Assembly (NCBI GenBank): GCA_030428945.1 | Contig: JAUIEC010000001.1 | Location: forward strand, 156,438 to 220,437 | Length of the DNA stretch: 64,000 nt | Direction: 5' to 3' | DNA from: Phycisphaerae bacterium | Lineage (GTDB): Bacteria > Planctomycetota > Phycisphaerae > UBA1845 > Fen-1342 | Shown here: positions 64 to 30,996 of the stretch, one piece after another | Position numbering within the stretch: position 1 is the first letter of the stretch | Layout of the letters: every line of letters begins with the position of its first letter | Made by a program: the position numbers and the translations under genes | The notes under the pieces: model-generated | Database searches by the model: none | Told to the model about the DNA's origin: nothing | Seen by the model: only the letters and a program-made list of their open reading frames with translations

Positions 64-129
64 AGTGAGCGAGTAAGCAAGTGAGCAAGTAAGCAAGTGA
101 GCAAGTGAGCAAGTAAGCAAGTGAGCAAG
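64..129 (+). repeat. GCAAGTRA heptamer tract (family A); sense orientation suggests an upstream + strand gene ends just before the window start
   Basis: Direct reading: gagtaagcaagtgagcaagtaagcaagtgagcaagtgagcaagtaagcaagtgagcaag. Confidence 0.8.
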
Positions 130-131
130 GG

Positions 132-216
132 TCGTAGGGTGCGTCATCGACGCATCAGCCCGCGCCCTCTTGTGAGCGGACGCTCAGGCGTCGATGCCGC
201 ACCGCCTGGCGCTTCC
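132..216 (-). repeat. Conserved ~80-bp intergenic core element (family D), inverted relative to the copy at 5158-5236
   Basis: Reverse complement of gtcgtagggtgcgtcatcgacgcatcagcccgcgccctcttgtgagcggacgctcaggcgtcgatgccgcaccgc aligns to 5158-5236 (gcggtgcggcatcgacgcc...gatgcgtcgctgacgcaccctacgg) with a few substitutions. It contains the internal palindrome TGCGTCATCGACGCA. Confidence 0.75.
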
Positions 217-278
217 TGCCGCAGCGAACACGGAACGCGGTGCGAAGTAAGCAAGTAAACAGGGCGTTGGGGTCATAC

Positions 279-3475: not shown

Positions 3476-5008
3476 ATGCGGATCTCGAACGCGACCCTGC
3501 TTCCGATAATCCTCGGCGGACTGCTGACCCTCTCGGGGGCGACCTGCTTCCCGATCATCGAGTTCGGTGACGACGGGCTGACCGAGCCGACGCCGCCAGA
3601 GCCGCTGACGGTCTCGGTCCGCTTCCCGTCGGCCAGCCGCGAAGTTCCCCAGGGCACGGTCGTCAACATCGACTGGACCCTGAGCAACAACACCGGCAGC
3701 GACGCGATTGCCTCGGTCATCCTGCGCGACCGGGGCGACCTGTCCAACACGATCCTGGTCGGCGGACAGCGGATCCTGGGCGGCGGGCCCCAGCGGGTCG
3801 ACTTCGACACGACCAACTTCGGTGGCCGGCGGTTCGACATCCTGATCCAGGTTCTGGCGGGCAGCGATTTCGTCGAAGAGACGGCCGAGGGGCAGATCAC
3901 GGTCAACGGTCTGCCGGCGTTCGAGTTCACCGAGCCGTTCGAGCCGGTGGTTCTGGGCGCGGACCAGCCGGAGCAGGATCCGAATTCCGACGAGCCGCCG
4001 CCGGATCCGACGGTGACGATCCGCTGGATCGGGTCGGATGCCGAGGGCGACGGAACGGTGACGATCTTCGGCGACACCGATCTCGATCACGAGAGCGGCA
4101 ACGAGTTCGAAATCACGAGCGGGAGCCTGTCGGCCGACGCCGTCTTCGATCAGTTCGAATGGGACGGCGTCCCGGCGGACGGTCCGGTCGAGGAAGAGAC
4201 GGTCTTCAACCTGTACGCGGAGATTTCGGACGGGGTCAACGAGGACTTCATCGTCGAGGGCCTGGCGACGATCACGGTTCCGCTGCCCGAGGAGGAGGAA
4301 GAGGAGGAGGTCTTCGCGCTCGAGATCACCGATCCGAACATGGACACGGACTTCCTGACGAGCGAGGCGATGTTCACGATCGGCTACACCATCGACGATC
4401 CGAACGTGCTGATCGACCTGGGCGTGGACCTGGACGACAACCACACCAACGGCAACGAGACGCTGATCCTCTTCCAGGAGTTCATCGAGAAGGGCGCCAA
4501 CGAGAACTCGTTCGACTGGGACGGGACCGACAAGGACGGCAACGTCGTCCCGAACGGCATCTACCGCACCTACCTGGTCGTCAACCGCGGCTCCGGCACG
4601 CCGCAGATCGTCGATGCCGAGGGCCTGCTGTTCCGGCGAGCCAACGAGAACGATCCGCTGATCGCGCTGCTGGATCCCGGCGTCGACAACACCAAGGACA
4701 TCGGCGAGTCGATCACCTTCCGCTGGCGCGACGAGGACCCCGACGAGACGGCCGTGATCCGCCTGACGCTCGACGATGATCCGGATCCGGACGAAGCGGT
4801 CGAGACCGACGAGGCCGAGATCGAGATCCTGCCCGAGCGCGACGCGGCCGGCGACGGTGTCCGCGACACGTTCGCGTACTCGGTGCCCAACACGCTGGCG
4901 CCCGGGACGTACTACATCTTCGCGTACATCGACGCGGACGGGGCAGCGCCCTTCGACCACGTCAGCGTCGCGCCCGGCCGCCTGATCGTCGAGGACCCGG
5001 ACGGGTAG
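3476..5008 (+). CDS. Secreted acidic (D/E-rich) repeat-containing hypothetical protein
   Basis: Signal peptide MRISNATLLPIILGGLLTLSGATC. Strong GC3 bias. The antisense ORF 3320-4960 is an Arg/Val-rich artefact. Confidence 0.7.
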   Translation: MRISNATLLPIILGGLLTLSGATCFPIIEFGDDGLTEPTPPEPLTVSVRFPSASREVPQGTVVNIDWTLSNNTGSDAIASVILRDRGDLSNTILVGGQRILGGGPQRVDFDTTNFGGRRFDILIQVLAGSDFVEETAEGQITVNGLPAFEFTEPFEPVVLGADQPEQDPNSDEPPPDPTVTIRWIGSDAEGDGTVTIFGDTDLDHESGNEFEITSGSLSADAVFDQFEWDGVPADGPVEEETVFNLYAEISDGVNEDFIVEGLATITVPLPEEEEEEEVFALEITDPNMDTDFLTSEAMFTIGYTIDDPNVLIDLGVDLDDNHTNGNETLILFQEFIEKGANENSFDWDGTDKDGNVVPNGIYRTYLVVNRGSGTPQIVDAEGLLFRRANENDPLIALLDPGVDNTKDIGESITFRWRDEDPDETAVIRLTLDDDPDPDEAVETDEAEIEILPERDAAGDGVRDTFAYSVPNTLAPGTYYIFAYIDADGAAPFDHVSVAPGRLIVEDPDG

Positions 5009-5021
5009 CTTGGGGAAGGGA

Positions 5022-5056
5022 ACCGGGAACAGGGAACAGGGAACAGGGAACAGGGG
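5022..5056 (+). repeat. GGGAACA heptamer tract (family B) directly after the stop of gene 3476-5008
   Basis: ggggaagggaaccgggaacagggaacagggaacagggaacaggg. Confidence 0.8.
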
Positions 5057-5350
5057 GTGCCGCGTGGTGGGCAGACCCTGCTGGCCTGCTGCACTGTTCT
5101 GGCTTGCTTACCTGCTCACTTCGCACCGCGTCCCGTGTTCGCTACGGCGGGGATCGCCAAGCGGTGCGGCATCGACGCCTGCGCTTCCGCTCACAAGAAG
5201 GCGCGGGCAGATGCGTCGCTGACGCACCCTACGGCACTGGGGGAAGGGAACCGGGAACCGGGCACCGGGAACAGGGAACAGGGGGTGCCGCTTGGTTGGC
5301 AGACCCTGCTGGCCTGCTGCACTGTTCTGGCTTGCTTACCTGCTCACTTG
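5054..5350 (+). repeat. Composite intergenic repeat block: two ~68-bp direct repeats (5054-5121, 5284-5350) flanking the family-D core (5158-5236) and a second GGGAACA tract (5240-5283)
   Basis: ggtgccgc(g/t)tggt(g/t)ggcagaccctgctggcctgctgcactgttctggcttgcttacctgctcactt occurs twice. The core matches 132-216 (inverted) and 49694-49770. Confidence 0.75.
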
Positions 5351-5400
5351 CTTACTTGCTTACTTGCTTACTTGCTTACTCGCTCACTTAGTGACAGTTT
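5338..5400 (-). repeat. GCAAGTRA heptamer tract (family A) in sense orientation directly at the stop of minus-strand gene 5388-7160
   Basis: The plus-strand text cttgcttacttgcttacttgcttactcgctcacttag contains the gene stop (TAA on the minus strand). The tract follows it in the gene sense. Confidence 0.8.
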
Positions 5401-7160
5401 CGGCCGAAGTTGCGGAGCACGACGGCCAGGTCGCTGAGGGTGACCGCCTGGTCGCCGGTGACATCGCCGGCCTGGGTGGCGGTTCGGCCGAAGTTGGTCA
5501 GGACCGTCTCGAGGTCGGCCAGGTCGATCGTCGCGCTGCCGTCCGTGTCGCCCGCGCAGGTCTCGGCCAGGAGCAGGCGCTGGTTGACCGGCACGTCGTG
5601 CAGTTCGCTGACCGTTCCGGACGCCGGCCAGGTGACCCAGACGCGGTGCAGCACGCTGACCGGGCGATCGAAGCCGAAGTGGGCGAGCGTCTCGTTCTGT
5701 GACATGAAGTTGCTGGCCGCCCGCAGTTCGCGCATCTGGACGGGGCTTTCGGGGGTGGCCTGCACGCGGACGACGGCGCCGATGCCTTCACGGCTGGTGA
5801 GCGTGCCGCGGAGGGTCACCTGCAGCCAGGCCCGCTGGCTGCCGCCGTCGTTGCGGTACAGCATCGGCGTGTCGGCGTTGTTGGCGATGAACAGGTCCAG
5901 GTCGCCGTCGCGGTCGTAGTCGAAGACGACCAGTCCCTTGCCCGAGCGGGTGTCGGTCAGCCCGACCGAGGTCGAGACCTCGGGCATCAGGCCCGGGCCG
6001 TCGTTGCGCCAGAGCTTCATCGGATCGTGGTTGAAGCGGTCCTCGTTGGTCAGGAACGGGAAGTCGACGCCGTTGGTCATCACCAGGTCGAGGTCGCCGT
6101 CGTTGTCGTAGTCGAGGAACGAAGCGCCCCAGCCCCAGCCGCCATCGCGCACGCCGCGGGCGTCGGTCTGATCGCTGAACAGCGAGTCGCCCTCGTTCTG
6201 GTAGAAGCGGTTGCCGCTTCCGTCCCAGTCGCCGAACGGTGCGTTCGGGTCGAAGATCGCGGTGACGAACCAGTCGAGGTCGCCGTCGTTGTCGTAGTCG
6301 CCGATCGCCGAGCCCATCCCGTTCTCGTCGGTCCCGACCCGGGCCGCTTCGGTCACATCCTCGAAGCTCCCGTTGCGGCGGTTGCGGTAGTAGCGGCTCG
6401 TGACGAAGTCGCCGGCGTGAACCAGGTCGGCCCAGCCGTCGCCGTCCATGTCGCTGAACGCGCCCGACCAGCCCTCGACCTCGTCCCGGAAACTGACGCC
6501 CTGCCGCGGAATCCGCTCGAAGACGCGGGCCGCTTCGGTCACGTCGACGAACGCGCCCCCCTCGTTGTGATACAGCGCGTTGGCCGGGTTGTCGGCCGAC
6601 CAGGTCCAGACCACCAGGTCCAGCCTGCCGTCCAGGTCGTAGTCGCCGAAGGCCGCGCTGCTCGGGCCGCGCTCGACGCCGCCGGTCATCGCCACGCCCC
6701 AGGCGGCCGCCTCCTCGCGAAACGTGCCGTCGCCGTTGTTCAGGTAGAGGAAGTTCTGCCCGTTGCGGTTGATCGTCAGCAGGTACAGGTCGACCCAGCC
6801 GTCGTTGTTGACGTCGCCCCAGATGCAGCCCGAACTGCGGCCGCTGAAGTCGACGCCGGCCGTCGCGGCCACATCCGCGAAGGTTCCGTCGCCCAGGTTG
6901 CGGTACAGCAGGTTCGGCTGGCGGACGCGGGTGACGTACAGGTCGACCCAGCCGTCGTTGTCGAAGTCGGCCGCGGCGGCGCCGCCGACCATGTAGGCGA
7001 GACTGGCGTTCGGGCCGGCGAGCGGGATTCCGTCCCAGTGGCTGGCCGAGACGCCGGCGGTGGTCGTTACGTCGGTGAAGGTCACGACCGGGTCGTCAGC
7101 GCGGGCGATGCCGCTCAACCCACAGAGGGCGATCACCACCCGCCATTGCGGCTTCCACAT
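5388..7160 (-). CDS. FG-GAP repeat / ASPIC-UnbV (CRTAC1-like) secreted protein with C-terminal dockerin-type repeats
   Basis: Repeated DxDGDGxxDL and FxNxGDGTF motifs. The C-terminus GDTDGSATIDLADLETVL...GDVTGDQAVTLSDLAVVLRNFG is dockerin type I-like. Signal peptide after the internal Met (MWKPQWRVVIALCGLSGIARA). The ORF track begins at a TTG upstream. Confidence 0.8.
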   Translation of the reverse strand: MWKPQWRVVIALCGLSGIARADDPVVTFTDVTTTAGVSASHWDGIPLAGPNASLAYMVGGAAAADFDNDGWVDLYVTRVRQPNLLYRNLGDGTFADVAATAGVDFSGRSSGCIWGDVNNDGWVDLYLLTINRNGQNFLYLNNGDGTFREEAAAWGVAMTGGVERGPSSAAFGDYDLDGRLDLVVWTWSADNPANALYHNEGGAFVDVTEAARVFERIPRQGVSFRDEVEGWSGAFSDMDGDGWADLVHAGDFVTSRYYRNRRNGSFEDVTEAARVGTDENGMGSAIGDYDNDGDLDWFVTAIFDPNAPFGDWDGSGNRFYQNEGDSLFSDQTDARGVRDGGWGWGASFLDYDNDGDLDLVMTNGVDFPFLTNEDRFNHDPMKLWRNDGPGLMPEVSTSVGLTDTRSGKGLVVFDYDRDGDLDLFIANNADTPMLYRNDGGSQRAWLQVTLRGTLTSREGIGAVVRVQATPESPVQMRELRAASNFMSQNETLAHFGFDRPVSVLHRVWVTWPASGTVSELHDVPVNQRLLLAETCAGDTDGSATIDLADLETVLTNFGRTATQAGDVTGDQAVTLSDLAVVLRNFGRNCH

Positions 7161-7381
7161 CACGATTGCACTCCCGCAGCGCGGTCCGAACGGACCCGAC
7201 AGAATTTCGCGCTGTCTACCAGCCGTCGCCCGAAGCGGCAACGAAGTGATTCAAACTCGCATTGTATCGCGCAGCCCGCACGACACAGAAGACACTGCTC
7301 AGCAGCTCAAGAGCAGTACCGCCGGAGCGCGAGCGACAGCAGGCTTGCTCCCTCGCTCCCTGGCTCCCTCGCTCCCTCTCC

Positions 7382-9142
7382 TCAGTGACACGCCCGGCCG
7401 AAGTTGCGCAGCAGGAGTGCCAGGTCGCTCAGTCCGACCAGGCCGTCGGCGTCGAAGTCGCCTTCGCCGGGGCCGGCGGCCGGTCCGCCGAAGCGCACCA
7501 GCAGTTGCTCGAGGTCGTCGAGCGCGATCGACAGGTCGCCGTTCGTGTCGCCGGCGCAGGGCTCGGTCACGAGGATCCGCTGGTTCAGCGGCACGTCGGT
7601 CAGGCGCTGCGTCAGTCCGCTGGCCGGCCAGGTCACCCGGACCTCGGCGACGCTCGTCACTTCGCGGTCGAAGCCGAAGTGCGCGATCGGTTCGTTCTGC
7701 GACAGGAAGTTGTTGCCGCCGGTCATCTCGTGCATCTGGACCGGGCTGTCGGCCGTGGCCTGCACGCGGATCCGGGCGCCGAGTCCGGCCGAGTTGGTCA
7801 GCGTGCCGCGCAGGGCGACCTGGAGCCAGTCGCGCTGATTGCCGCCGTCGTTGCGGTACAGAACCGGCATCTCGAGGTTGTTGGCGATGACGATGTCCTG
7901 GTCGCCGTCGCGGTCGTAGTCCAGCACCGCCAGGCCCTTGCCGCTGCGATCGTCGTCAAAGCCGAGGGCCGCGCCGGTCTCGTTCATCAGGCCGCCGCCG
8001 ATGTTCTCCCACAGTCGCACCGGGGTGATGTTGAACAGGTTCTCGATGAACGTGTACGGGTAATTCACCCCGTTGGTCATCGCCAGGTCGAGGTCGCCGT
8101 CGTTGTCGTAGTCGAGGAACGAAGCGCCCCAGCCCCAGTCGCCGTCCCGGGTGGTCGTCACATCGGTGTAGTCCGAGAACAGCGAATCGCCCTCGTTGCG
8201 ATAGAAGCGGTTCCCCGTGGTCCCCCACAGGCCGACCTGGTCGTCCCAGATCGACGTGACGAACCAGTCCAGGTCGCCGTCGTGGTCGTAGTCGCCGAGG
8301 GCCGAGCCCATTCCGTTCTCGTCGGTGCCAAGCTGACCCGCCACCGTCCGGTCACTGAAGGTTCCGTCACGCTCATTGCGGTAGTAGCGGCTCGTCAGGA
8401 AATCGCCGGCCGTCACCAGGTCGACCCAGCCGTCGTTGTCCATGTCCGCGAAACTGCCGGACCAGCCGAACACTTCGCGGCCGCCGATCCGTCCGAACAC
8501 GTTGGCCGCCTCGGTCACCTCGGTGAAGTGTCCGCTGCCGTCGTTCTGGAACAGGGCGTTACCGGGGTCCGTGAAGGACCACTCCCAGACCACCAGGTCC
8601 AGGTCGCCATCCAGGTCGTAGTCGCCGAAGGCCGAACTCGAGTAGTAGCGGTCCTCGCCGCCCGCCATCGCCACGCCCCGGGCGGCCGCGTCCTCGGTGA
8701 AGGTTCCGTCGCCGTTGTTGATGTACAGCAGGTTGACCCCGTTGCGGCGGAAGACGGTCACGTACAGGTCCGGCCAGCCGTCGTTGTTGACGTCGCCCCA
8801 CATGCCGCCGGCGCTGCGTCCGCTGAAGTCGACGCCGGCCGTCGCGGCGACATCCTCGAAGGTCCCGTCGCCGAGGTTCCGCCACAGGCTGTTGGGGGTC
8901 AGCAGGCGGGTGACGTACAGGTCGGTCCAGCCGTCCTGGTCGAAGTCGCCGGCCGAGACGCCCGCGACCATGTACCAGTAGTCGACTTCGCCGGGCTGGT
9001 TCGGCAGCACGCCGTCCCAGTGCATGACCTCGATGCCGGCGGCGGCGGTCACATCGGTGAAGCCGACCGGTGTGGGATCCAGCGCCAGGCCCGGAACGGC
9101 CGGCGCGAGCAGCGCAATCGAACTCAGAACGATCCGCCTCAT
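7382..9142 (-). CDS. FG-GAP repeat / ASPIC-UnbV (CRTAC1-like) secreted protein with a C-terminal dockerin-like domain (tandem paralog)
   Basis: Co-linear similarity to 5388-7160 (GVDFSGRS..GDVNNDGW.DLY, UnbV-like RVTWPASG). Signal peptide MRRIVLSSIALLAPAVPGLA. Followed by a GGGAGCGA tract at 7344-7381. Confidence 0.8.
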   Translation of the reverse strand: MRRIVLSSIALLAPAVPGLALDPTPVGFTDVTAAAGIEVMHWDGVLPNQPGEVDYWYMVAGVSAGDFDQDGWTDLYVTRLLTPNSLWRNLGDGTFEDVAATAGVDFSGRSAGGMWGDVNNDGWPDLYVTVFRRNGVNLLYINNGDGTFTEDAAARGVAMAGGEDRYYSSSAFGDYDLDGDLDLVVWEWSFTDPGNALFQNDGSGHFTEVTEAANVFGRIGGREVFGWSGSFADMDNDGWVDLVTAGDFLTSRYYRNERDGTFSDRTVAGQLGTDENGMGSALGDYDHDGDLDWFVTSIWDDQVGLWGTTGNRFYRNEGDSLFSDYTDVTTTRDGDWGWGASFLDYDNDGDLDLAMTNGVNYPYTFIENLFNITPVRLWENIGGGLMNETGAALGFDDDRSGKGLAVLDYDRDGDQDIVIANNLEMPVLYRNDGGNQRDWLQVALRGTLTNSAGLGARIRVQATADSPVQMHEMTGGNNFLSQNEPIAHFGFDREVTSVAEVRVTWPASGLTQRLTDVPLNQRILVTEPCAGDTNGDLSIALDDLEQLLVRFGGPAAGPGEGDFDADGLVGLSDLALLLRNFGRACH

Positions 9143-9399: not shown

Positions 9400-11508
9400 T
9401 CAGTCGTGGTCCGGTAACGTCCGGGGCCAGTAGCGGAGGTCGCCGCTGTCGTTCGAGCGGTCGTAGTCCAGTCCGCCGTCGTCCAGCATGTCGGGACCGG
9501 CCGAGTAGAGCGAAAAGCCGTCGCCTTCGAGCCGGTAGATCATCGGCTGGTTGGTGAAGGGATCGATCAGGTCCACGGCCTCGCCCAGTTCGTCGAGCGA
9601 CTGCGGCAGTTCCCCGACGGCCTGCTCGTACGCGCGAATCCGGGCGACGGCCCGGGCGGCCCGGCGGTTGGCCTCGCCGCGGGTGTACAGCATGCTGGCG
9701 CGGGTCAGCGACGGCGCCAGCACTCCGAGCACCGGGTTGGTCAGTCGCGTCGTCTGCAGTTCTTCCTCGATCGCCTGGAACATGGCGTGCGACGCCGGGT
9801 AGTCGGCCGTCGCCGCGAGCGTCATCTGGTCGTAGAAGTCGTCCGCGCCGTCGCGGATCTTCTCGAAGCCCTGCGCGCTGAGCGCCATGCCGACCGCGAA
9901 CATGCCCGCGTCCGGGCCCGAATCGCCGGCCAGCGAGGCGACGTTCGCGAACTCCCGCAGTCCGCCCGGTGCCAGCCGGTAGCCGTCGTACTCGTCGTGC
10001 TCGTACAGGCGCTGGATCTCGTCCATCATCGCCGCCCGCTCGAACTGGATCGTCTGCGAGAACGGGCGCATCGGCACCTGGTAATCGTCGTACTGCGCGA
10101 ACTGGGCGACGTAGTCGATCTGACCGTCGACATCCTTCGCGTACAGATCCAGCAGCGCATCGGTGGCCAGGTGTTCGACGGCCACGCCGACCAGTCCCTC
10201 GATCAGGGTCGTGCCGCGGCCGGTCTGTCCGCCGCTGCGGAGGGTCATCAGGTACTCGCGCGAGGCGGCCTCGTAGTCGCCGGCGACTTCCTGCTGCTTG
10301 CCGAGAATGACCTGGGCCCGGGCCAGGTTGCGAATCTTGCTGAGCGTCGGCAGCAGCACGCCGATCAGCCGCGTGTCCTCCGGATCGCCGGTCCGCAGGT
10401 CGTAGCCGGTGAAGTCATGCATGCCGGCTTCGCGCAGCAGGGCGATGCCATCGACGTTCCGGTCCAGCCAGCTCAGGATGTCCGGGTCCGCCAGTGTCTG
10501 CGGGTTCCCGGCCATCGCTTCGGCGAAGAAGTCCGGATCCATGTCGAATTCCGGCGTGGCTTCGGCCGCCTGTTCAAACAGGTCGGCCGCCGTGCCGGCG
10601 TTCGTGTGCGTGTTCATCCAGTCGATGTAGTTGACCCAGTCGCCCGGCCGGGGGTCCGGCAGGTCATCGACGGGGCGCGGCAGTTCGCGCAGCGCCGCGT
10701 CGGGGCTCGGGCTGTCGAGCCAGTTGAGGACCCGCCACGCCCAGGAGCGCTCGGGCGGGTCGGCCTGGTTCGGATCTTCCGGGTCGGAATCGGCCATCCG
10801 CATGTCGAGCATGGCCGGAGGGCCGTTCGGATCACCGCCGGCCAGCAGCGCGGCCAGTTGCTCGGACATTTCGCTGGCGCTGAGCATCTCCATCAGCGTC
10901 AGCAGCGGGTCCTTCGGATCGGCCTGCATCTCGGTCGCCGGCGTGACGAGTTCGCGGGTTGCCGGTCCGTGGCTCTCGATCAGTTCCAGCCGCTCCAGGT
11001 CCACGCGAATCTCGCGCCCGTTCTCCAGCACGATGACGAAGTGCGGCGCGTGGGCGTCGAAGCCGACCTGCCTGGCGCCGTGCCGCCAGTCGAGCGATTC
11101 GCCGCGGCGCTCGACGTTCAGCAGTTCACCCGGGTCGAGCAGTTCGTCGAGGGCCCATTCGCGTCCGGGCTCGCCGTCTTCGAGGTAGACCACCAGCGTG
11201 TGGGCCGCACCGCCCATCCGGTACTCGTCGAGCGTGACCACCCACCGGCCGCTGTCGTGGACGAACGCCGCCAGCGGGGCGATCTCGTTGACCAGTTCGA
11301 CCTCCCACTTCGTCTCGGGCCGTTTGCCGCGGGCGCGGTACTGAAGCGTGGCCCGGCACGCTGTTCCGGTTGTCTCGCCGCCGCGACCCGGCGTGACCCG
11401 CAGGCGGTACTCCTTGCTGGCCGAGTAGGCCTGGCGCACCGGGGCGGCGTCGGGTCCCTGGGTGACAAGCAGCGCAGCGGCACACAACAGAACGGCGAAG
11501 GTTGGCAT
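9400..11508 (-). CDS. Secreted hypothetical protein (~700 aa)
   Basis: GGAG located 9 nt upstream of the ATG of MPTFAVLLCAAALLVTQG (signal peptide). The ORF track start at 11556 is probably too far 5'. No confident domain. The C-terminal DPFTNQPMIYR..GFSLYSAGPDMLDDGG is reminiscent of a GspG-type pseudopilin C-terminus (weak). Confidence 0.6.
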   Translation of the reverse strand: MPTFAVLLCAAALLVTQGPDAAPVRQAYSASKEYRLRVTPGRGGETTGTACRATLQYRARGKRPETKWEVELVNEIAPLAAFVHDSGRWVVTLDEYRMGGAAHTLVVYLEDGEPGREWALDELLDPGELLNVERRGESLDWRHGARQVGFDAHAPHFVIVLENGREIRVDLERLELIESHGPATRELVTPATEMQADPKDPLLTLMEMLSASEMSEQLAALLAGGDPNGPPAMLDMRMADSDPEDPNQADPPERSWAWRVLNWLDSPSPDAALRELPRPVDDLPDPRPGDWVNYIDWMNTHTNAGTAADLFEQAAEATPEFDMDPDFFAEAMAGNPQTLADPDILSWLDRNVDGIALLREAGMHDFTGYDLRTGDPEDTRLIGVLLPTLSKIRNLARAQVILGKQQEVAGDYEAASREYLMTLRSGGQTGRGTTLIEGLVGVAVEHLATDALLDLYAKDVDGQIDYVAQFAQYDDYQVPMRPFSQTIQFERAAMMDEIQRLYEHDEYDGYRLAPGGLREFANVASLAGDSGPDAGMFAVGMALSAQGFEKIRDGADDFYDQMTLAATADYPASHAMFQAIEEELQTTRLTNPVLGVLAPSLTRASMLYTRGEANRRAARAVARIRAYEQAVGELPQSLDELGEAVDLIDPFTNQPMIYRLEGDGFSLYSAGPDMLDDGGLDYDRSNDSGDLRYWPRTLPDHD

Positions 11509-12544: not shown

Positions 12545-12990
12545 TACCGGCGGGACGCCAGTGTCTTCGCGGACCTTTAGATTCTGGATTTGTGGCACAG
12601 GCGTCTCGCCTGTGTCTTCCGGATAGGGTGCCCAATCACCGGCGGGACGCCGGTGCCACACAAGACAAGGCCGGTGCCACACAAGACACGGTGGCTCAGC
12701 GGAAGTTCAAGCTTGTGGCACTCCAAGCTTGTGCCATCCAAGCTGTGTGGCTGTGTGGCTGTGTGGCACAGGCGTCTCGCCTGTGTCTTCGCAGACCTTT
12801 AGATTTCTGGGTTTGTGGCACAGGCGTCCCGCCTGTGTCTTCCGGATAGGGTGCTCAATCACCGGCGGGACGCCGGTGCCACACAGGTCAAGGCCGGTGC
12901 CACACAAGGCCGGTTCCACAAGGGGGTCGGTGCTCAATCACCGGCGGGACGCCGGTGCCACACAAGACACGGCCGGTGCCACAGAAGGGT
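12545..12990. repeat. Two copies of a ~120-200-bp palindromic repeat (family E)
   Basis: Units gacctttagatt(t)ctgg(g/a)tttgtggcacaggcgtc(t/c)cgcctgtgtcttccggatagggtgc(c/t)caatcaccggcgggacgccggtgccacaca(a/g)g(a/t)caaggccggtgccacaca at ~12575-12690 and ~12790-12985. Internal perfect palindrome caccggcgggacgccggtg and near-palindrome ggcacaggcgNNcgcctgtg(t)c. Confidence 0.8.
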
Positions 12991-14595: not shown

Positions 14596-14922
14596 ATGTC
14601 GGTCCCGCAGGTCAGCCCGCAGGATGTGCACACCAGGATGCAGCAGCAGGCGGCGGACTTCGTCCTGCTGGACTGCCGCCAGGCGCACGAGGTCGCCTTC
14701 GCCTCGATCGAGGGCGCGGTGCATATCCCGATGGACGAGTTGCCCGACCGGCTGGGCGAACTGGACAAGGCGGCCGAGGTGGTCGTGATGTGCCACCACG
14801 GCGTCCGCAGCATGGCCGTGGCCGGCTTCCTGCGGGAATCCGGCTACGAGCGGGTCTCCAGCATGAGCGGTGGCATCCACGGCTGGTCGCAGGCGGTCGA
14901 CGCGAGCGTACCCCAGTACTGA
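14596..14922 (+). CDS. Single-domain rhodanese-like sulfurtransferase (GlpE-like)
   Basis: Active-site loop CHHGVRS with the catalytic Cys. 108-aa size. Three bp downstream of the radical SAM stop. Confidence 0.85.
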   Translation: MSVPQVSPQDVHTRMQQQAADFVLLDCRQAHEVAFASIEGAVHIPMDELPDRLGELDKAAEVVVMCHHGVRSMAVAGFLRESGYERVSSMSGGIHGWSQAVDASVPQY

Positions 14923-15054
14923 CGCGCAGCAGGCAAGTGAGCAGGTAAGCAGGGTCGGGGGGCGCGGCCTCTTCCCGGCCTGGCTCCTTCGCTCCCTGAT
15001 CCCCGGCTCCCTTCCCGGGCTATAGTACTTCCGGCGAAACAACGGAGAACGCAC

Positions 15055-18878: not shown

Positions 18879-20318
18879 ATGTTGAGACGAAGCATCTGTT
18901 CCCTGGGACTGCTGGCGGCCGCGAGCCTGCTGCCGCCGGCGGGGGCCCAGGTCACGGGGACGGCGCCGCGGGTGACGGTGGCCGAGCGACTCGGCCTGCG
19001 GCAGGTGGACGTTCAGTCGCTGGCGATCACCGAGATGGACCGCGGGGTCGAGGTGGAGCTGGCGCTGGCGGGCACGCCGCTGACGATCGAGGCGGTCCGG
19101 GTCAGCCTGCGGACGAGTGATTTCGAAGTGCTGGTCGAGGACGCGACCGGGCTGCGGCGTGTGGCGGCGCCGCCGCCGACGACGATTCGCGGGGCGATCC
19201 GGGAGATTCCGGGCAGTTACGTGAGCGGGTCGCTGTTCGAGGGTTCGCTGCGGGTCCGGATCATGCTTTCGCGGGACGAGGTCTTCTTCGTGCAGCCGGT
19301 TCCGAACGCGGCGGCGGACGCGCACGCGGTCTACGGCTACTGGGACGTGCTGCCGGTGGACAATGGCTGCGCGCTGCCGGACGAGGTGCCGACGGCGGGC
19401 TTCGAGGCGGCGGACCCGCCAGCGGCGGGGTCGGGTGATCCGGCCCCGTCGGGCGAGGACGAGACGCCGACGTACCTGCGGGCGTTCTATCCGCGGCACA
19501 CCGAGATTTCGTGGGACACCGACACGCAGTTCGTCAACGGTGAAGGCGGTGCCGAGGCGGCGCTCAACTACATCGAGACGGTGATGGTCGGGGTGGACGA
19601 CATCTATCGCACGAACGCGCAGATCGCCTACGTGCTGAACCGGATCATCATTCGGACGGCCGAGCCGGACCCGTACACGTCGAGCGACTCGTCGACGCTG
19701 CTGGGGCAGGTGCGGTCCGAGTGGAACGGGAACCTGTCGGCGCTCGAGCGCGACGTCGTGCACCTGTTCAGCGGGCGCGACTTCGAGCAGAACGTGATCG
19801 GCCGGGCGTACTTCGCCGGTATCTGCAACACGGACGGGTACGGCGTGAACCAGCGGATCACGAACTTCGCGAACCAGGTCGGCGAGGTTGCGCACGAGCT
19901 GGGGCACAACTGGAACGCGGCCCACTGTGCGGAAATCGTGGGCGGCAACTGTCCGACGAACGCGCCGGCGGACTGCGGCATCATGTGCGCCTGCATCGCC
20001 GGCTGCAACGGCAGCACGACCGTGTTCGGCGCGGCGTCGCTGAACAGCATCATCACGCACCGCAACGGGCGGACGTGTCTGAACGGCGAGGAACTGGTCG
20101 TGTACGTGGATGCGGCCGCGACCGGAACCGAATCCGGGACGAGCGGGGCGCCGTACGACACGCTGCGCGAGGGGCTCTGGGCGTCGCCGCCGACCGGTGG
20201 CACGCTGGAGATCGCGGGTTCCGCGCTGTACTTCGAAGACGGCGTGCTCGATCGGCTGAACCGGCCGGTGATCTTGCGCGGGCAGCCCGGTACGGGGGCG
20301 GCGCTGATTCAGCGGTAA
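18879..20318 (+). CDS. Secreted zinc metalloprotease, metzincin / reprolysin (M12B)-like with a propeptide
   Basis: Extended zinc motif HELGHNWNAAH (HExxHxxxxxH). Cys-rich segment after the catalytic domain. Signal peptide. The start lies 16 bp after the stop of 16995-18863. Confidence 0.7.
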   Translation: MLRRSICSLGLLAAASLLPPAGAQVTGTAPRVTVAERLGLRQVDVQSLAITEMDRGVEVELALAGTPLTIEAVRVSLRTSDFEVLVEDATGLRRVAAPPPTTIRGAIREIPGSYVSGSLFEGSLRVRIMLSRDEVFFVQPVPNAAADAHAVYGYWDVLPVDNGCALPDEVPTAGFEAADPPAAGSGDPAPSGEDETPTYLRAFYPRHTEISWDTDTQFVNGEGGAEAALNYIETVMVGVDDIYRTNAQIAYVLNRIIIRTAEPDPYTSSDSSTLLGQVRSEWNGNLSALERDVVHLFSGRDFEQNVIGRAYFAGICNTDGYGVNQRITNFANQVGEVAHELGHNWNAAHCAEIVGGNCPTNAPADCGIMCACIAGCNGSTTVFGAASLNSIITHRNGRTCLNGEELVVYVDAAATGTESGTSGAPYDTLREGLWASPPTGGTLEIAGSALYFEDGVLDRLNRPVILRGQPGTGAALIQR

Positions 20319-20370
20319 CGCGAGCGCGGGTCGAGGATCTGAAGGAGTGAATGGGTGCCGTGGTGCCCGT

Positions 20371-22932
20371 TCACTCTTTCGCTGCGCCGGCTGGTTTGTG
20401 CAGGGCCTGCCAGCGGGCGTGCTGCGCTGGCTGGTCGGTGGCCTGATAGAGGTCGACCAGGCCGCCGATGCCGCGCTGGGTGTAGGGGTGCTCGTCGCCG
20501 ACCTGGTCGCGGAGAGTTTTGACGCCGGTCAGCAGCAGCGGTTCGGCCTCGGCGGGGCGGCCGACGGTCAGCAGGGCGGTTCCGAGCCGGCACTGGTAGT
20601 CGCCGAGGCGCCAGTGGTTTTCGGGCAGTGATTCGGTCGCGCCGGCCAGGGCTTCGGTGAAGTGTTCGAGGGCCAGTTCGGTTTCGCCGCGGGCCAGCAG
20701 GATTTCGCCGACGAGGCTGAGCGTCAGCATGGTTTCCTCGTGGGAGAGGCCGAGGTCGGCCCGGCGGGCGGCGAGGGTCTGGCGGGCGAGGGTCTCGGCC
20801 TCATCCAGTTCGCGGACCAGCAGCAGGCTGGACGCGAGGTTGTGTCGGCTGGTCAGGGTGTCCGGGTGGTTCTCGCCGAGGACCCGTTCGCGGATTTCGA
20901 GCAGGGAGCGCATCAGCGCGATCGCTTCGTCCTGTCGGCCGAGGTTCTTCAGCACGAGTGCCAGGTTGTTGCGGACGCTGAGCGTGTGCGGGTGTTCGTC
21001 GCCGAAGCGTTCGGCCAGGCCGGCCTCGGTCTGTCGCAGCAGCGGTTCGGCCTCGGCGGACTTGCCGATTTCCCACAGCAGCAGCGCCAGGCTGTTGCGG
21101 GTTCCGAGTGTCAGCAGGGCGTCGGGCTGGGTTTCCTCGAGGCCGGCCAGGGTTTCGCGCAGCAGGGCCTCGGCTTCGTCAAGTCTGCCGAGCGACTGCA
21201 GCAGGTTGCCGAGGCTGCTGCGGGCGGCGCGGGTGTTGCGGTGGTTCGGGCCGAGCAGTCGCTGGCGGATGGTCAGCAGGCGGCGTTTCCAGTACTCGGC
21301 GTCGTTCAGCTTGCCGCGCTGCTGCAGGGCGCTGGCGTAGTTGTTCATCGTGATCTGGGTGTGGTCGTGGTCCTCGCCGAGCACCTCGACCCGCGTGTCG
21401 AGCGCCTGGCGGAGCGTCTCTTCGGCCTGTTCCAGCTTGCCGAGTCCGAGGAACGCGGTGCCGAGGGTGTGCTGCAGGCCCGCCCGGATCTCGGGGTTTT
21501 CGGCGAACTCGGTCTCGGCATGCGGGGCGGCCCAGGTCAGCATCTCCGAGATCCGCACATCGCCGCCTTCGCCCTGCGTCGGGTCGGCCGAGGCGAGGAT
21601 CTTCCGCAGGAACTCGTTGATCGCCGTGACCTTCTCGGCCTCTTCCTCGGCCAGCGTCTGTGCCCGGCGGGTTTCCTGGAGGCGCGTGTCGGCCAGGTCG
21701 AGGGCCTCGATCGCCCGGTTGCGGTCCGCGTCGGCCTGGCGGCGGAGCGTTTCCGCCTGGCGGTAGAGGACGCCCATCCATGCGCCGAACGCGAGCACCA
21801 GGCCGAACAGCACGCCGGCGGCCGCGAAGGGGGCCTTGTGACGGGCGACCAGTTTCCGCAACTGGTAGCCGAAGGTGTGCGGTGTGGCGAGGATCGGTTC
21901 GTTGCCGAGGTAGCGTTCGATGTCCTCGTTCATGGCGGCCGCGCTCTGGTAGCGGCGGGCGGGGTCTTTCTCGATCGCCTTGAGGATGATCGCTTCGAGG
22001 TCGGCGTCGATGCGCGGGTTGAGGGTGCGGGGGCGGACGGGGTCCTGTTCGCAGATGACGCGGAGGGCGTCGAGCAGTTGCGTGCGGTCGACTTCGTAGG
22101 GCAGCCGCAGCGTGAGCAGTTGGAAGAGGATGATGCCGAGGGCGTAGACGTCGGTCCGCAGGTCGATCTCGTCGGGGTTGCCGCGGGCCTGCTCGGGGCT
22201 CATGTAGTGCAGGGTGCCCTGGATCCGGCCGACCTCGGTGACGATGGTGTGTTCGTCGCGTTCGTCGTCGGTGATCCGGGACAGGCCGAAGTCGAGGATC
22301 TTGGGGTTTCCGGTCGGGGTGACGATGATGTTGGACGGTTTCAGGTCGCGGTGGATCACGCCGCGCTGATGGGCGTAGTGGACGGCGTCGCAGATCCGGC
22401 GGAAGAGGTCGAGGCGGGCCTGCAGGGTCGGTTCGCCCCGGGCGGCGAAGCGCCCGAGCTGGACGCCCTCGACCAGTTCCATCACGAAGTACTGCAGGTT
22501 GCTGTCGCTGCCGTCCGCGGCGTGGATCGCGGCGATCGCGGGGTGCTTCAGGCGGGCGAGGGCCTCGGCCTCGCGCTGAAAGAGGCGCAGGTGGTACTCG
22601 TCGAGCGTGCGGCCGTGGAAGACCTTGACGGCCACGCGTCGGCGGGGCTGTTCCTGTTCGGCCTCGTAGACGATGCCGCTGCCGCCGCGTCCGATTTCGC
22701 GGAGGACGCGGTAGCCGGCCAGGTGCGGAATGGCCTGGGCGGGTGCGGTGCGGACGGCGGGTTCGGCCAGTCGGGCGATGCTGCCGCTGACCTGGAGGTT
22801 GGCGGAGACGTCGTCGAACTGCTGGCGGCAGTCGGGGCAGGCGTCGAGGTGGCTGCGGAGCTGGAGCGAGAGCGACTCGGTCAGGTCTTCGCAGGCGAGG
22901 GCCTCAAGTTGTTCGAGGTCCGGACACGGCAC
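20371..22932 (-). CDS. Ser/Thr protein kinase with an N-terminal zf-HC2 anti-sigma-like zinc finger, a TM segment and a C-terminal TPR array
   Basis: HLDACPDC (H-x3-C-x2-C). Kinase subdomains GxGxxG (GRGGSG), VAVK, HRDLKPSN, DFG, SPE. Hydrophobic helix about aa 380-400. More than 8 TPR-like repeats. Confidence 0.9.
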   Translation of the reverse strand: MPCPDLEQLEALACEDLTESLSLQLRSHLDACPDCRQQFDDVSANLQVSGSIARLAEPAVRTAPAQAIPHLAGYRVLREIGRGGSGIVYEAEQEQPRRRVAVKVFHGRTLDEYHLRLFQREAEALARLKHPAIAAIHAADGSDSNLQYFVMELVEGVQLGRFAARGEPTLQARLDLFRRICDAVHYAHQRGVIHRDLKPSNIIVTPTGNPKILDFGLSRITDDERDEHTIVTEVGRIQGTLHYMSPEQARGNPDEIDLRTDVYALGIILFQLLTLRLPYEVDRTQLLDALRVICEQDPVRPRTLNPRIDADLEAIILKAIEKDPARRYQSAAAMNEDIERYLGNEPILATPHTFGYQLRKLVARHKAPFAAAGVLFGLVLAFGAWMGVLYRQAETLRRQADADRNRAIEALDLADTRLQETRRAQTLAEEEAEKVTAINEFLRKILASADPTQGEGGDVRISEMLTWAAPHAETEFAENPEIRAGLQHTLGTAFLGLGKLEQAEETLRQALDTRVEVLGEDHDHTQITMNNYASALQQRGKLNDAEYWKRRLLTIRQRLLGPNHRNTRAARSSLGNLLQSLGRLDEAEALLRETLAGLEETQPDALLTLGTRNSLALLLWEIGKSAEAEPLLRQTEAGLAERFGDEHPHTLSVRNNLALVLKNLGRQDEAIALMRSLLEIRERVLGENHPDTLTSRHNLASSLLLVRELDEAETLARQTLAARRADLGLSHEETMLTLSLVGEILLARGETELALEHFTEALAGATESLPENHWRLGDYQCRLGTALLTVGRPAEAEPLLLTGVKTLRDQVGDEHPYTQRGIGGLVDLYQATDQPAQHARWQALHKPAGAAKE

Positions 22933-23701: not shown

Positions 23702-26056
23702 GTGACGCCGATTGTCGGCGGGAGGATGCCAATGCCGTCAGCGAGTCGCCCCGCCAACCAGGCCGACTTCACCTTCGAGATCGATCAGCCGGACACGCCC
23801 GCGCTGCGGGTGACCGGCTTCCGCGGCCAGGCCGCGCTGAGCACGCTGTTCCACGTGCAGGTCGACCTGGCGTCGGATGAACCGGCGCTCGACAAGGCCG
23901 CGCTGCTCGGGCAGGCCTGCCGGCTGACGCTCCGGTCGCCGCGCGGCGATCGGTTCATCTCGGGCATCGTCCGCGCGCTGGCCCGCACCGGGCAGGGGTC
24001 GCGGGTGACGCACTACGCGGCCGAGATCGTGCCGGTGCACTGGTACCTGACCCGCCGGCAGCAGTCGCGGATTCTGCAGAGTCACCTCTGCACGGACATG
24101 AGTGTCCCGGGCGTGATCCAGCACGTGCTGGAAAAGGCCGGCATTCCGGACACGCACTTCCGCTTCGCGTTGCAGGGCACCTATCCGCAGCGTGAGTGCG
24201 TCGTGCAGTACCGCGAGACGGACATGAACTTCATCGCGCGGCTGATGGAGATCGAAGGCCTGCACTTCTTCTTCGAGCACGAGGCGGACCGGCATGTGCT
24301 GGTGATCGCCGACGGCGACGTCGCGCACGTGCCGGGCGAGGGGATCGAGGAGATCGCCTTTCGCGCGCCGACCGGCCTGGTGCCGGCCGAGACCTGCGCG
24401 TTCGAACTGGAGGATCGGCGGGCGATCGAGGTCGACGCGGTTTCGCTGGACGATTTCGACTTCAAGAATCCGGCCCAGCAGTTGCGGGCCCGGCTGGAAG
24501 GTCCGGACGCGCCGGCCCTCGAGACGGTCGACTATCCCGGCTGCTACGTGACCCGCGGCGATGGCGAGCGCTACGCCCGCGTGCGACTGGAGGCCGAGCA
24601 GGTCGGGCGGCACGTCGTCCGCCTGCGGGCCAATGTCCGCGGGCTGCGCCCGGGCTCGACCTTTCACCTGGTCGATCATCCGGCCGCCGAGTGCAACCGC
24701 GAGTACCTGGTGATCGCGGCCGAGGAGCAGGCCGCCCAGCCACAGAGCGTGACGAACGAGGCGGGCGCGGCCGAGGCCCCGCAGTACCGGGTGCTGCTGA
24801 CGCTGATTCCGGTGGAGGTGCCGTACCGGGCGCCGCTGGACACGCCGGTCCCGCGGGTGGCGGGCAGCCAGACGGCGCTGGTGGTCGGTCCGCCGGGCGA
24901 GGAGATCTGGCCGGACGAGTACGGACGGGTCAAGGTGCAGTTCCACTGGGACCAGGCCGGGACGTACAACGAGGAGAGTTCGGCCTGGATCCGGGTCAGC
25001 CAGGGGTGGGCCGGCGGGCGTTACGGGATGTTCTTCCTGCCGCGGGTCGGGCAGGAGGTGGTGGTCGATTTCCTGGAGGCGAACCCGGATCGGCCGCTGA
25101 TCACGGGCAGCGTCTACAACAAGGACAACATGCCGCCGGTGCAGTTGCCGGAGGACAAGACCTGCAGCACGATCAAGTCGCGCAGCACGGTCGGCGGGGG
25201 CGGGGCGAACGAACTGCGGTTCGACGATCGCAAGGACGAGGAACTGCTGTTCCTGCACGCCCAGAAGAACCTTCACCTGCGGGCGCTGAACGACGCGATC
25301 GAGACGATCGGGGCGAACCGGCACTCGCACGTGTCGGGCGACGTGATCAGCGAGGTCTCGAAGAACGTCTCGACCGCGATCGAACTGGATCGCTGCGAGC
25401 AGATCGGCGGGAACGCCTCGCTGTCGATCACGGGTGACCAGATCGAGGTGGTGTCCGGCAATCAATCGGTCGATGTCGGCGGCGGGCAGACCTTGACCTG
25501 CGGCGGCACGGTCGTGGTCGAATCGAGCACGGGCATCACGCTGAAGGTCGGCGGCAACTTCCTGACGATCGACCCGAGCGGGATCTACCTGATGGGTACG
25601 GTCGTGCACGTCAACGGCGCCGGCGCGGCTCTGAACGGCACGTCGCTCGAAGCGCTCGAGACCGGCGAGGCGGCCGTGGCGGCCACGACCGAGCCGGGCA
25701 CGGACGTCACCTACCAGGCCGATCCGGATACGCCGGGACAGATCGAGGCGACGCTGCAGCAGGTCGCCGACGCGGACGAGGACCAGGCCGAAGACGAGGC
25801 GAGCTGGGTCGAGATCGAACTGGTGGACCAGAACGGGCTGCCGGTGGCCGGCGAGGCCTGGGAACTGATTTCGCCGAGCGGGAAGACCTACAGCGGCAGC
25901 CTGGACGCCAACGGCCGGTCGCACGTGGCCGTCGATCAGCCGGGGACCTGCCAGGTCAGCTTCCCGCGACTCGACCGGCGGGCCTGGTCGCGGACAGGCG
26001 GAGAGCAGGCGGCCGCGACGGCCGCGGGTGGCGCGACGCAGGAGGGCTCGGCATGA
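23702..26056 (+). CDS. vgrG: Type VI secretion system spike protein VgrG
   Basis: gp5 OB-fold hallmark RVGQEVVVDFLEANPDRPLITGSVYN. gp27-like N-terminal domain and a beta-helical repeat region (GNASLSITGDQIEVVSGNQSVDVGGGQ...). About 90-aa C-terminal extension after an acidic linker. The start may be M9 or M11 (23726 or 23732). Confidence 0.9.
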   Translation: MTPIVGGRMPMPSASRPANQADFTFEIDQPDTPALRVTGFRGQAALSTLFHVQVDLASDEPALDKAALLGQACRLTLRSPRGDRFISGIVRALARTGQGSRVTHYAAEIVPVHWYLTRRQQSRILQSHLCTDMSVPGVIQHVLEKAGIPDTHFRFALQGTYPQRECVVQYRETDMNFIARLMEIEGLHFFFEHEADRHVLVIADGDVAHVPGEGIEEIAFRAPTGLVPAETCAFELEDRRAIEVDAVSLDDFDFKNPAQQLRARLEGPDAPALETVDYPGCYVTRGDGERYARVRLEAEQVGRHVVRLRANVRGLRPGSTFHLVDHPAAECNREYLVIAAEEQAAQPQSVTNEAGAAEAPQYRVLLTLIPVEVPYRAPLDTPVPRVAGSQTALVVGPPGEEIWPDEYGRVKVQFHWDQAGTYNEESSAWIRVSQGWAGGRYGMFFLPRVGQEVVVDFLEANPDRPLITGSVYNKDNMPPVQLPEDKTCSTIKSRSTVGGGGANELRFDDRKDEELLFLHAQKNLHLRALNDAIETIGANRHSHVSGDVISEVSKNVSTAIELDRCEQIGGNASLSITGDQIEVVSGNQSVDVGGGQTLTCGGTVVVESSTGITLKVGGNFLTIDPSGIYLMGTVVHVNGAGAALNGTSLEALETGEAAVAATTEPGTDVTYQADPDTPGQIEATLQQVADADEDQAEDEASWVEIELVDQNGLPVAGEAWELISPSGKTYSGSLDANGRSHVAVDQPGTCQVSFPRLDRRAWSRTGGEQAAATAAGGATQEGSA

Positions 26057-26955: not shown

Positions 26956-27014
26956 TGAGCAGGTAAGCGGGTAGGCAGGTGTGCTGCGGGGCCTTTTCGG
27001 GCGTTGGATTGGAG

Positions 27015-28028: not shown

Positions 28029-28030
28029 AC

Positions 28031-28858: not shown

Positions 28859-29241
28859 AGCCGGTGTTCACGCTGCGCGACGCGCACCTGGAGGCGTTTG
28901 CCGCGGCGGCGCGGGAGAGCTTCGAGGATCGCATGCTGGCGCACGTCCGCCTGGCGTTTCGCGCGCGGCATGACGAACTGGGCGCGGTCGAGTCCCGCCG
29001 CTGGGTCCGCAGCGGGATCGAGCGGGCGGCCGACTACGGGATCACGGTCGAACGGGACGTCAGTCGCTTCATCCGGCTGATGTTTCAACTGGGTGAGAAC
29101 TTCGACCGCGGGCAGGCCCGGGCGATGCTGGCGCGGCGCGACGTGCCGGCCGCGCTGCGGTTGAACCGGGTGCTGACGATGGCGGTCAGTTCGGGGGCCC
29201 TGCCGGCCGGGACGGTGCGGGCGGTGGAGGCGGAGTCGTGA
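28855..29241 (+). CDS. Hypothetical 128-aa cytoplasmic protein in the vgrG operon
   Basis: ACATGA stop/start overlap with the PAAR gene. Coding-like bias. No signal peptide or recognisable motif. Confidence 0.55.
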   Translation: MKPVFTLRDAHLEAFAAAARESFEDRMLAHVRLAFRARHDELGAVESRRWVRSGIERAADYGITVERDVSRFIRLMFQLGENFDRGQARAMLARRDVPAALRLNRVLTMAVSSGALPAGTVRAVEAES

Positions 29242-30955: not shown

Positions 30956-30996
30956 GCAGGTGAGCACGTAAGCACGTAGGCAAGCAGCAAGTGACC
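30939..30996 (+). repeat. GCAAGTRA-type heptamer tract (family A) overlapping the end of the DUF4123 gene
   Basis: gagcaggtaagcaggtaagcaggtgagcacgtaagcacgtaggcaagcagcaagtga. Confidence 0.8.

Follow-up and report, generated by a model that had tools for sequence, protein, structure and literature searches.

In a scattering of bacterial lineages, tandem repeats with units of 7–8 nt are abundant. G-rich heptamers, GGGAATC in Xanthomonas and GGGGA(T/C)T in Nostoc, have been reported by Rehm et al. (2015, PMC4692102); they lie preferentially within 50 bp of a stop codon and on the sense strand, are mostly transcribed, seldom occur between divergent genes, and in some cases overlap the stop. MacGregor (2015, PMC4679880) has described TAACTGA direct repeats in Beggiatoaceae, cyanobacteria and Bacteroidetes, in which all the forward frames contain stops. 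These sets mostly end one to a few nucleotides upstream of start codons, and a regulation of translation initiation has been proposed for them. The long simple sequence repeats of Mrazek et al. (2007), as summarised in PMC4679880, have units of 5–11 nt and are attributed to polymerase slippage. In addition, Di Nocera et al. (2013, PMC3733652) have found GTAG-tagged repetitive extragenic palindromes (REPs), which often lie beside or overlap stop codons, form mosaics, and occur in Planctomycetes as well. In this work, we have analysed a window of 64 kb with 68% G+C (positions 156,438 to 220,437 of contig JAUIEC010000001.1 from a Phycisphaerae bacterium), where tandem tracts of the unit GCAAGTRA lie at gene ends. 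These tracts are one type of lineage-specific, strand-polar 7–8 nt tandem repeats in the class of long simple sequence repeats, and resemble the short tandemly repeated repetitive (STRR) sequences. The genome stands out for its density of tracts and the clarity of the pattern, and it suggests that what is conserved is the location at the translation stop and the strand.

The GCAAGTRA unit has 8 bases. Tandem Repeats Finder (TRF) gave a period of 8 for every tract listed in a preliminary description of this DNA, with 2.8–8.2 copies and 82–95% matches, and exact GCAAGTRA units occur 28 times in the window against 1.44 expected, a number that none of 100 shuffles reached. The "heptamer" with a "7-nt period" of that description is thus wrong and has to be read as an octamer, but tracts are indeed present at all ten of its coordinates, as TRF rows or, at 14933–14948 and 26953–26982, as short or degenerate tracts. 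Two features of bacterial long simple sequence repeats, a tandem unit of 5–11 nt and an excess over composition, are therefore observed. In register, the octamer consensus is G-C-[A>G>C]-[A>G]-G-[T>G]-[G>A]-A with the bridging units GCGAGTAA and GCAAGGGA, and a single continuum, GC[A/G][A/G]G[T/G][G/A]A, joins the stop-containing and the stop-free octamer units. The AGGGAAC and GCGAGGGA/GAGGGAGC units are free of stops in every frame on both strands, and the sense-strand G3N1–7 x4 motif is found in the AGGGAAC and GCGAGGGA tracts. Runs of G, and with them the G-quadruplex (G4) motif of at least four G3 runs, are absent from GCAAGTRA. Readings as Shine-Dalgarno (SD), CsrA or Hfq sites were looked at by eye only, and no motif common to all unit families was seen.

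Tracts reach up to 8–10 units and occur about once per 3.4 kb in the window, compared with one 7–8 nt tract per 22 kb in 446 kb of background metagenome loci; by hand count, ~17 of ~32 genes with a free 3' flank have a post-stop tract. Because of the high G+C content and the many overlapping open reading frames (ORFs), genes were called from the G+C content at the third codon position (GC3), and those beside the tracts were checked by Pfam. The families found (FG-GAP/ASPIC, rhodanese, PG_binding, DUF4123, RibD_C, GT2, and CoA-transferase A and B) show that the flanking genes are real and mutually unrelated. An Rfam scan of the window gave one tRNA only and no RNA family at the tracts or hairpins, and the octamer sequence as a literature query returned only noise.

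The preliminary description had stated that the tracts are always in gene sense and at or after stop codons. For comparison, ten tracts were placed on a random strand and at random positions in the intergenic DNA of the window (6.6 kb) in 200,000 trials. Nine of the 10 testable GCAAGTRA tracts start between -25 and +65 nt from a same-strand stop (random mean 1.6), and seven lie no more than 15 nt after a sense stop (random mean 0.45); 0 of 200,000 random placements equalled the observed counts of nine within 65 nt and seven within 15 nt. The tract starts at 5389 (minus strand), 14933, 26953, 30940, 41392, 42026, 53983 and 61928 are 0–55 nt after a same-strand stop or the tract contains the stop, and the tract at 42105 is a second one behind a gene that is already followed by the tract at 42026. 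Gene sense thus holds for nine of the 10 testable tracts and fails for an inverted copy at 54037–54077 and a short antisense copy at 5101–5121. The placement at stops stands for the window, where the tracts are strand-polar and stop-proximal, but not always elsewhere, since the octamer also occurs in divergent regions and upstream of an SD+ATG in Streptomyces. The divergent intergenic regions of the window hold no post-stop-type tract. Where a next start is present, the tracts end 28–219 nt from it, and several tracts lie in convergent regions. Moreover, tracts of opposite orientation occur within one intergenic region, each fitting its adjacent gene (5017 on the plus strand with 5389 on the minus strand, and 42105 on the plus strand with 42316 on the minus strand). 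Therefore, the polarity follows the gene and not the replication strand, which rules out a replication-oriented motif of the KOPS or Chi type.

Apart from exceptions, all the purine-skewed 7–8 nt tandem repeats in the window follow this stop-proximal, sense-strand pattern. Six of the eight stop-free sibling tracts start no more than 15 nt after a sense stop, which was matched by 0 of 200,000 random placements. On the plus strand, (AGGGAAC)5.6 at 5017–5055, with G-quadruplex potential, starts 8 nt past stop 5008 and is followed by a hairpin at 5056–5096, and (AGGGAAC)4.4 at 55455–55485 starts 11 nt past the scoB stop 55443 and is followed by a hairpin at 55507–55549. The complement, a stop-free purine tract (CAGGGAA)3 at 279–298 on the minus strand, starts 8 nt past stop 307 of the minus-strand gene 307–906. 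Tracts of the GCGAGGGA or GAGGGAGC type start 3, 11 and 14 nt past the minus-strand stops 7382, 42328 and 49926; they are (GMGAGGGA)4 at 7347–7378, (GCRAGGGA)9.8 at 42240–42316, and (GCGAGGGA)n at 49828–49911, the last being followed by GTAG-REP-like copies at 49754 and 49800. The stop-free exceptions are (GGGAACC)5.4 at 5246–5283 (plus strand), which is the duplicate of 5017–5055, and (RMGAGGGA)4 at 35708–35739, a true exception that lies on the plus strand in antisense orientation between two minus-strand genes. A plus-strand ORF at 34232–35695 was considered as the cause of the latter and rejected, as this ORF is spurious and the real gene is a minus-strand DEAD-box helicase. We have also observed (CGGGGTT)8 at 57795–57850 on the non-coding strand, 25 nt upstream of the start of the minus-strand gene 55892–57769; it belongs to the "upstream antisense" class of Xanthomonas repeats and is the sole such case in the window.

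The exchange of units at a fixed position can be seen in the tandem paralogs 5388–7241 and 7382–9142, which are 73% identical and share the codon at which they end (...NFGRNCH and ...NFGRACH, each followed by the stop). The first, an FG-GAP/ASPIC gene, is followed by a stop-containing (GCAAGTAA)n tract of seven units at 5331–5389 (minus strand), which starts at the stop TAA 5390–5388 and reads GCGAGTAA GCAAGTAA x3 GCAAGTGA GCAGGTAA on the minus strand; the second is followed at the equal position by the stop-free (GCGAGGGA)n tract at 7347–7378. In addition, a metagenomic relative with a 95% identical ScoB has a purine-rich tract directly after its scoB stop, with one AGGGAAC and units of GGAGGGAG and GCCAGGGA compared with four AGGGAAC in the window. 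Both comparisons indicate that the unit sequence changes, stop codons included, while place and strand are kept. Other ScoB relatives are found at 81–84% identity, and the named neighbours are metagenome-assembled genomes (MAGs) of Phycisphaerae/Planctomycetota. In the relative GCA_964495075.1 (65% G+C), AT-rich heptamers AATTACT/TAATGAC lie 2–18 nt past five stops and always in gene sense (10682–10713, 10778–10801, 14848–14882, 20221–20251 and 20405–20436 of that locus). The Planctomycetales MAG CAZEEJ01 (11 loci) has ~10 other purine-rich units, including GGAGAAT, AGGAGAC, GAATGGA and CTCAAGG, at -14 to +19 nt from sense stops. Counting by hand the stop-free tracts beside a stop in the window and this MAG, we find ~11 or 12 with the purine strand in sense and 0 with the pyrimidine strand. 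A comparison of orthologous scoA loci in metagenomes gave best matches that are ~75% identical and not syntenic, and these loci have been used as background only.

The further claims that three GCAAGTRA units place a stop in each frame and that the reverse complement is stop-free are both correct, and the three-frame argument survives the correction of the period because 8 is not divisible by 3; the GCAAGTCA variant units have no sense stops. Since the unit contains TGA/TAA, ORFs end in the tracts, and two proteins share the end ...EQVSR. As had been described, these C-termini are encoded by the tracts: the GCAGGTRA/GCACGTAA tract at 30939–30994 (plus strand) provides the final EQVSR and the TAA stop 30953–30955 of a DUF4123 protein (...HREQVSR), and GCAAGTGA GCAGGTGA at 42022–42043 (plus strand) provides EQVSR and the TGA stop of a RibD_C protein (...RGEQVSR), previously called DHFR-like. 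Likewise, the stop of the FG-GAP gene 39703–41391 is the first TAA, 41389–41391, at the start of a five-unit tract at 41388–41433 (plus strand). The long antisense ORFs through the tracts (39733–42231, 25936–27027 and 61824–62204, all on the minus strand) are spurious, and they cross the tracts because no stop interrupts them in antisense. However, a sense tract that has stops in every frame terminates any ORF running into it, so that such ORF ends are a logical necessity; this trivial effect has already been pointed out for the TAACTGA repeats (MacGregor 2015, PMC4679880).

The tracts occupy the stretch of the 3' untranslated region (UTR) nearest to the gene, from the stop to a hairpin or REP-like module. 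The cassette thus consists of stop, tract and hairpin(s), and in convergent regions it closes with a mirror-image tract and stop. According to predicted folds, a stable hairpin of -21 to -56 kcal/mol follows each tract, and four of these hairpins are GTAG-tagged and REP-like (GTAGGGTGCGTCA..GACGCA). The tracts themselves are direct repeats with weak predicted pairing and have neither the palindrome nor the GTAG/CGTC tag of REPs, features that the adjacent GTAGGGTGCGTCA..GACGCA module does show as a palindromic stem-loop with a GTAG tag. Behind the RibD_C gene, the tract at 42022–42043 is followed on the plus strand by a hairpin CCCCCACCCT...AGGGTGGGG (42047–42101, -29 kcal/mol), a second GCAAGTRA tract of five units (42104–42145), and two further hairpins of the same family in the middle of the convergent intergenic region (42150–42236, -51 kcal/mol). 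The tract-plus-hairpin unit 42022–42101 is duplicated here at 42125–42204 with 92% identity. At the start of the window, an eight-unit GCAAGTRA tract (64–129, plus strand), in whose first degenerate unit a frame-3 partial ORF ends (TGA 66–68), is followed by a 129-nt hairpin module (133–261, plus strand, -56.5 kcal/mol) that opens with the GTAG-tagged REP-like stem-loop GTAGGGTGCGTCAtcGACGCA and closes with a short AAGTAAGCAAGTAA. This module is 89% identical to the reverse complement of 5105–5233, its second copy on the minus strand, which lies between 113-nt direct duplicates (5009–5121 and 5237–5349, 95% identical); the short antisense GCAAGTRA copy at 5101–5121, missed previously, lies within the duplicated module. 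The duplicated module, the 113-nt duplication and the tract-hairpin copy together indicate that the intergenic regions are mosaics similar to bacterial interspersed mosaic elements (BIMEs). Upstream of the plus-strand gene scoA, a GCAAGTAA tract (53979–54009, plus strand), which starts 4 nt past the stop 53974 of a glycosyltransferase gene, and the inverted GCAAGTRA tract of five units (54037–54077, minus strand), absent from the earlier list, form an imperfect hairpin of ~35 bp (-50.5 kcal/mol) from the glycosyltransferase stop to the scoA start. This hairpin (53975–54080) could act as an attenuator or an RNase III site.

In a scan with one genome per species, the three-unit octamer pattern was found at more than 82 loci in many phyla. 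In the viral collection, it was found at 6 loci against 9 and 2 for two composition-matched controls, and most host loci with the octamer also hold other 7–8 nt repeats. These two results led us to reject a universal conserved element: in viral contigs the matched octamers reach a similar frequency, and other repeats of this size abound in the host genomes in general. By hand tally, a sense upstream gene ends -24 to +60 nt from the tract in ~30 of ~70 cross-phylum loci, and the mirror case was seen in 6; in addition, 9 antisense tracts lie inside ORFs and ~14 tracts in divergent regions. This sense asymmetry is partly the trivial ORF-termination effect of MacGregor. Two Vibrio species have a nearly unchanged tract, which differs by one 4-nt indel and is flanked by the stop on one side and an intrinsic terminator on the other. 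In Streptomyces, it lies directly upstream of SD+ATG, with 9 and 4 units in two species. In CAZEEJ01, a conserved module of ~140 nt with hairpins lies behind the GCRAGTRA tract, and the tract plus these ~140 nt recurs at ~78% identity. The 446 kb of metagenome background holds several intergenic 7–8 nt tracts just upstream of start codons. Among unrelated metagenome contigs of 55–57% G+C, four (L099, L100, L145 and L153) carry AACTGTA/TGTAAAC-type heptamers that end 0–11 nt upstream of starts and resemble the TAACTGA class.

Several explanations of these observations have to be weighed. A selected three-frame translational backstop, which would halt read-through or frameshifted ribosomes at gene ends, would be in line with the TGA/TAA units (stops in three frames, none in antisense), with the genes whose stop is supplied by the tract, and with the likewise stop-rich post-stop TAATGAC/AATTACT heptamers of the relative. 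However, this purpose, which the preliminary description had suggested for the element, is made unlikely by the stop-free AGGGAAC and GCGAGGGA tracts that share position and strand, by the swaps between stop-containing and stop-free units in paralogs and orthologs, by the stop-free GCAAGTCA units, and by tract lengths far above three units, while the ORF ends in tracts are logically forced and are not evidence of selection (PMC4679880). We thus regard a backstop as highly improbable, and the stop codons of the GCAAGTRA unit are probably an incidental by-product and not the maintained property. The swaps also bear on G-quadruplex- or R-loop-prone purine tracts that would pause or terminate transcription at gene ends. 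The sense-strand G3N1–7 x4 motif in the AGGGAAC and GCGAGGGA tracts and the purine-rich sense strand in the window and the MAG speak for such a signal, and Xanthomonas transcripts do start and stop more often at G4-forming repeats (PMC4692102). Yet GCAAGTRA, which cannot form G4, behaves identically and interconverts with G-rich units, and the relative's AATTACT/TAATGAC units lack enrichment in either G or purines. The fact that units with and without G4 capacity take each other's place makes a quadruplex less plausible, and we consider a structure-based signal of this kind very unlikely.

It is also conceivable that the tracts hitch-hike as ends or target sites of REP/BIME-like modules, or of modules like miniature inverted-repeat transposable elements (MITEs), which are spread by a transposase and insert beside stops. 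The 129-nt GTAG module present twice with a short tract at one end, the 113-nt duplication, the 92% tract-hairpin duplicate and the recurring tract-plus-hairpin unit of CAZEEJ01 would be expected from this process, and GTAG REPs do abut stop codons and occur in Planctomycetes (PMC3733652). Nevertheless, Pfam checks found no REP-associated tyrosine transposase (RAYT) or other transposase gene in the window, one tract type pairs with different hairpin families, several tracts lack a recognisable shared module, and transposition alone does not explain the gene-sense polarity, so that hitch-hiking appears rather improbable. A better, if still unlikely, alternative is a neutral by-product: slippage-prone 7–8 nt microsatellites would survive only where they are harmless, from the stop to the terminator or hairpin, and their polarity would result from trivial filters, with sense tracts truncating ORFs cleanly and antisense tracts being read through or disrupting promoters. 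Copy numbers that differ between species, drifting units, genomes rich in other 7–8 nt repeats, an octamer no commoner than matched controls in viral contigs (6 against 9 and 2 loci), the 9 antisense tracts inside ORFs across phyla and two related genomes free of tracts are all compatible with neutrality. It does not account for the stop-free tracts, which lack this trivial cause of strand specificity and yet show ~11–12 purine-sense cases against 0 pyrimidine-sense cases, for identical units at many loci of one genome, or for a tract kept at the same codon in 73%-identical paralogs. Finally, in this planctomycete lineage, post-stop tracts of any unit may be a functional 3'-end signal that is read on the nascent transcript at the site of translation termination. 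One example would be a landing site, independent of hairpin and U-tract, for a termination, recycling or decay factor; such a factor would have to tolerate, or co-evolve with, many 7–8 nt units. We consider this signal doubtful, about as much as hitch-hiking, but if true, it would be a gene-end punctuation system that has not been described in bacteria.

Overall, we hold with modest confidence that the best explanation of the whole is drifting strand-polar repeats, maintained by slippage, constrained in place and strand at the transcript, and with a spacer role. Replication slippage would grow, shrink and homogenise the tracts, and the unit would drift from GCAAGTRA through GCGAGTAA and GCAAGGGA to GCGAGGGA, and also to AGGGAAC. 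The retention of place and strand points to a constraint on the transcript, or on transcription or translation at gene ends, and not on double-stranded DNA. As the mechanism, we prefer a transcribed, sequence-tolerant and expandable spacer, by which the terminating ribosome would be kept from the strong downstream hairpins; the tract might additionally be a platform for a factor. The spacer role itself is put forward only tentatively. Several observations weigh against this explanation. One unit is common to more than 10 loci in a genome, which goes beyond local slippage alone, and in other phyla the octamer is also found in divergent regions and 5' UTRs. Two real exceptions, 35708–35739 and 54037–54077, are present in the window. 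The relatives L181 and L185 have no such tracts, so the tracts are dispensable. Support for a spacer from folding is marginal: the 40 nt that directly follow the stop have a predicted probability of being unpaired of 0.39 where a tract is present and of 0.35 where there is none (p = 0.06). In the scan of 40–56 kb, no hairpin-plus-U terminator serves a tract-bearing gene, and canonical intrinsic terminators behind the tracts were rejected for this reason; terminator-like sites number 6 against 6.5 expected there, and the one at 49915–49929 (plus strand) adjoins the tract 49828–49911 but includes the stop codon of the gene and lies on the strand opposite to it.

Two GCARGTRA units (14933–14948, plus strand) lie 10 nt past the stop 14922 of the rhodanese gene, and a degenerate tract GTTAGTGA GCAGGTAA GCGGGTAG GCAGGTGT (26953–26982, plus strand) overlaps the stop TAG 26953–26955. 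A type VI secretion-like islet at 23702–30955 comprises VgrG (23702–26056), PG_binding (26053–26955), LysM (26979–28028) and DUF4123 (30401–30955) genes, two of which end in or at tracts. The GCAAGTRA tract of six units at 61928–61978 (plus strand) starts 55 nt past stop 61872, and a tRNA-Pro (TGG) is found at 62105–62178, 127 nt downstream of it. A GGAGTGAAAGAGG motif occurs in two 3' flanks, 34140–34186 and 61873–61927, and in the former a degenerate GTGAAGNN octamer run lies beside it after stop 34187. The 52-nt gap between the convergent genes ending at 20318 and 20371 (20319–20370) is a single hairpin, GGAGTGAATGGGTGCC/GGTGCCCGTTCACTC. Between the RmlD-like and B12/radical-SAM genes, a cluster at 12556–12988 consists of ~130-nt direct repeats, 94% identical, together with a hairpin GTGGCACAGGCGTCTCGCCTGTGTC and tandem units of 21 and 16 nt (GCCGGTGCCACACAAGACAAG); this repeat family is distinct from the tracts.

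Practically, the tracts are a trap for gene callers through the spurious antisense ORFs, and they put ...EQVSR ends, each closed by the stop, on unrelated proteins. In an assembly of short reads from the same organism (ERR3428548), a contig stops within a tract (4092–4125, corresponding to 53975–54008 of the window), which indicates that these repeats break short-read assemblies.

The STRR heptamers of cyanobacteria are comparable to the tracts of the window. The long simple sequence repeats (summarised in PMC4679880) are like them in tandem 7–8 nt units, in lineage-specific abundance and in a mostly non-coding location, and neither a stop-proximal sense rule nor interconverting unit families appear in the surveys as summarised there. 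REPs and BIMEs have a counterpart in the four GTAGGGTGCGTCA...GACGCA stem-loops next to the tracts, but the tracts are non-palindromic direct tandem repeats without a GTAG tag, and are thus neighbours of REP-like modules and not REPs themselves. The closest prior art is the heptamers of Rehm et al. (2015) together with the TAACTGA repeats of MacGregor (2015). With the latter, the tracts share forward stops in all three frames and none in reverse, an intergenic location with some overlap of ORF ends, possible reverse copies inside ORFs, a patchy phylogeny, and related units mixed in one tract; however, the window tracts track stops, even in convergent regions without a downstream start, and are not start-proximal. 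Like the heptamers of Rehm et al., the window tracts are stop-proximal and on the sense strand, and AGGGAAC/GGGAACC is nearly the same unit, whereas GCAAGTRA, an octamer, contains stop codons but lacks G runs and hence G4 potential. About half of the Xanthomonas repeats lie upstream of genes on the non-coding strand, while the window tracts are nearly all post-stop and sense, and the density of ~1 per 3.4 kb is ~8x higher than the roughly 1 per 27 kb of Xanthomonas. That stop-containing, G-quadruplex-capable and AT-rich units interchange at one position argues against the published three-frame-stop and quadruplex ideas. In comparison with these systems, what is new here is an octamer incapable of forming a quadruplex, a planctomycete host, the ~8x density, and a unit sequence that is interchangeable at a fixed position.

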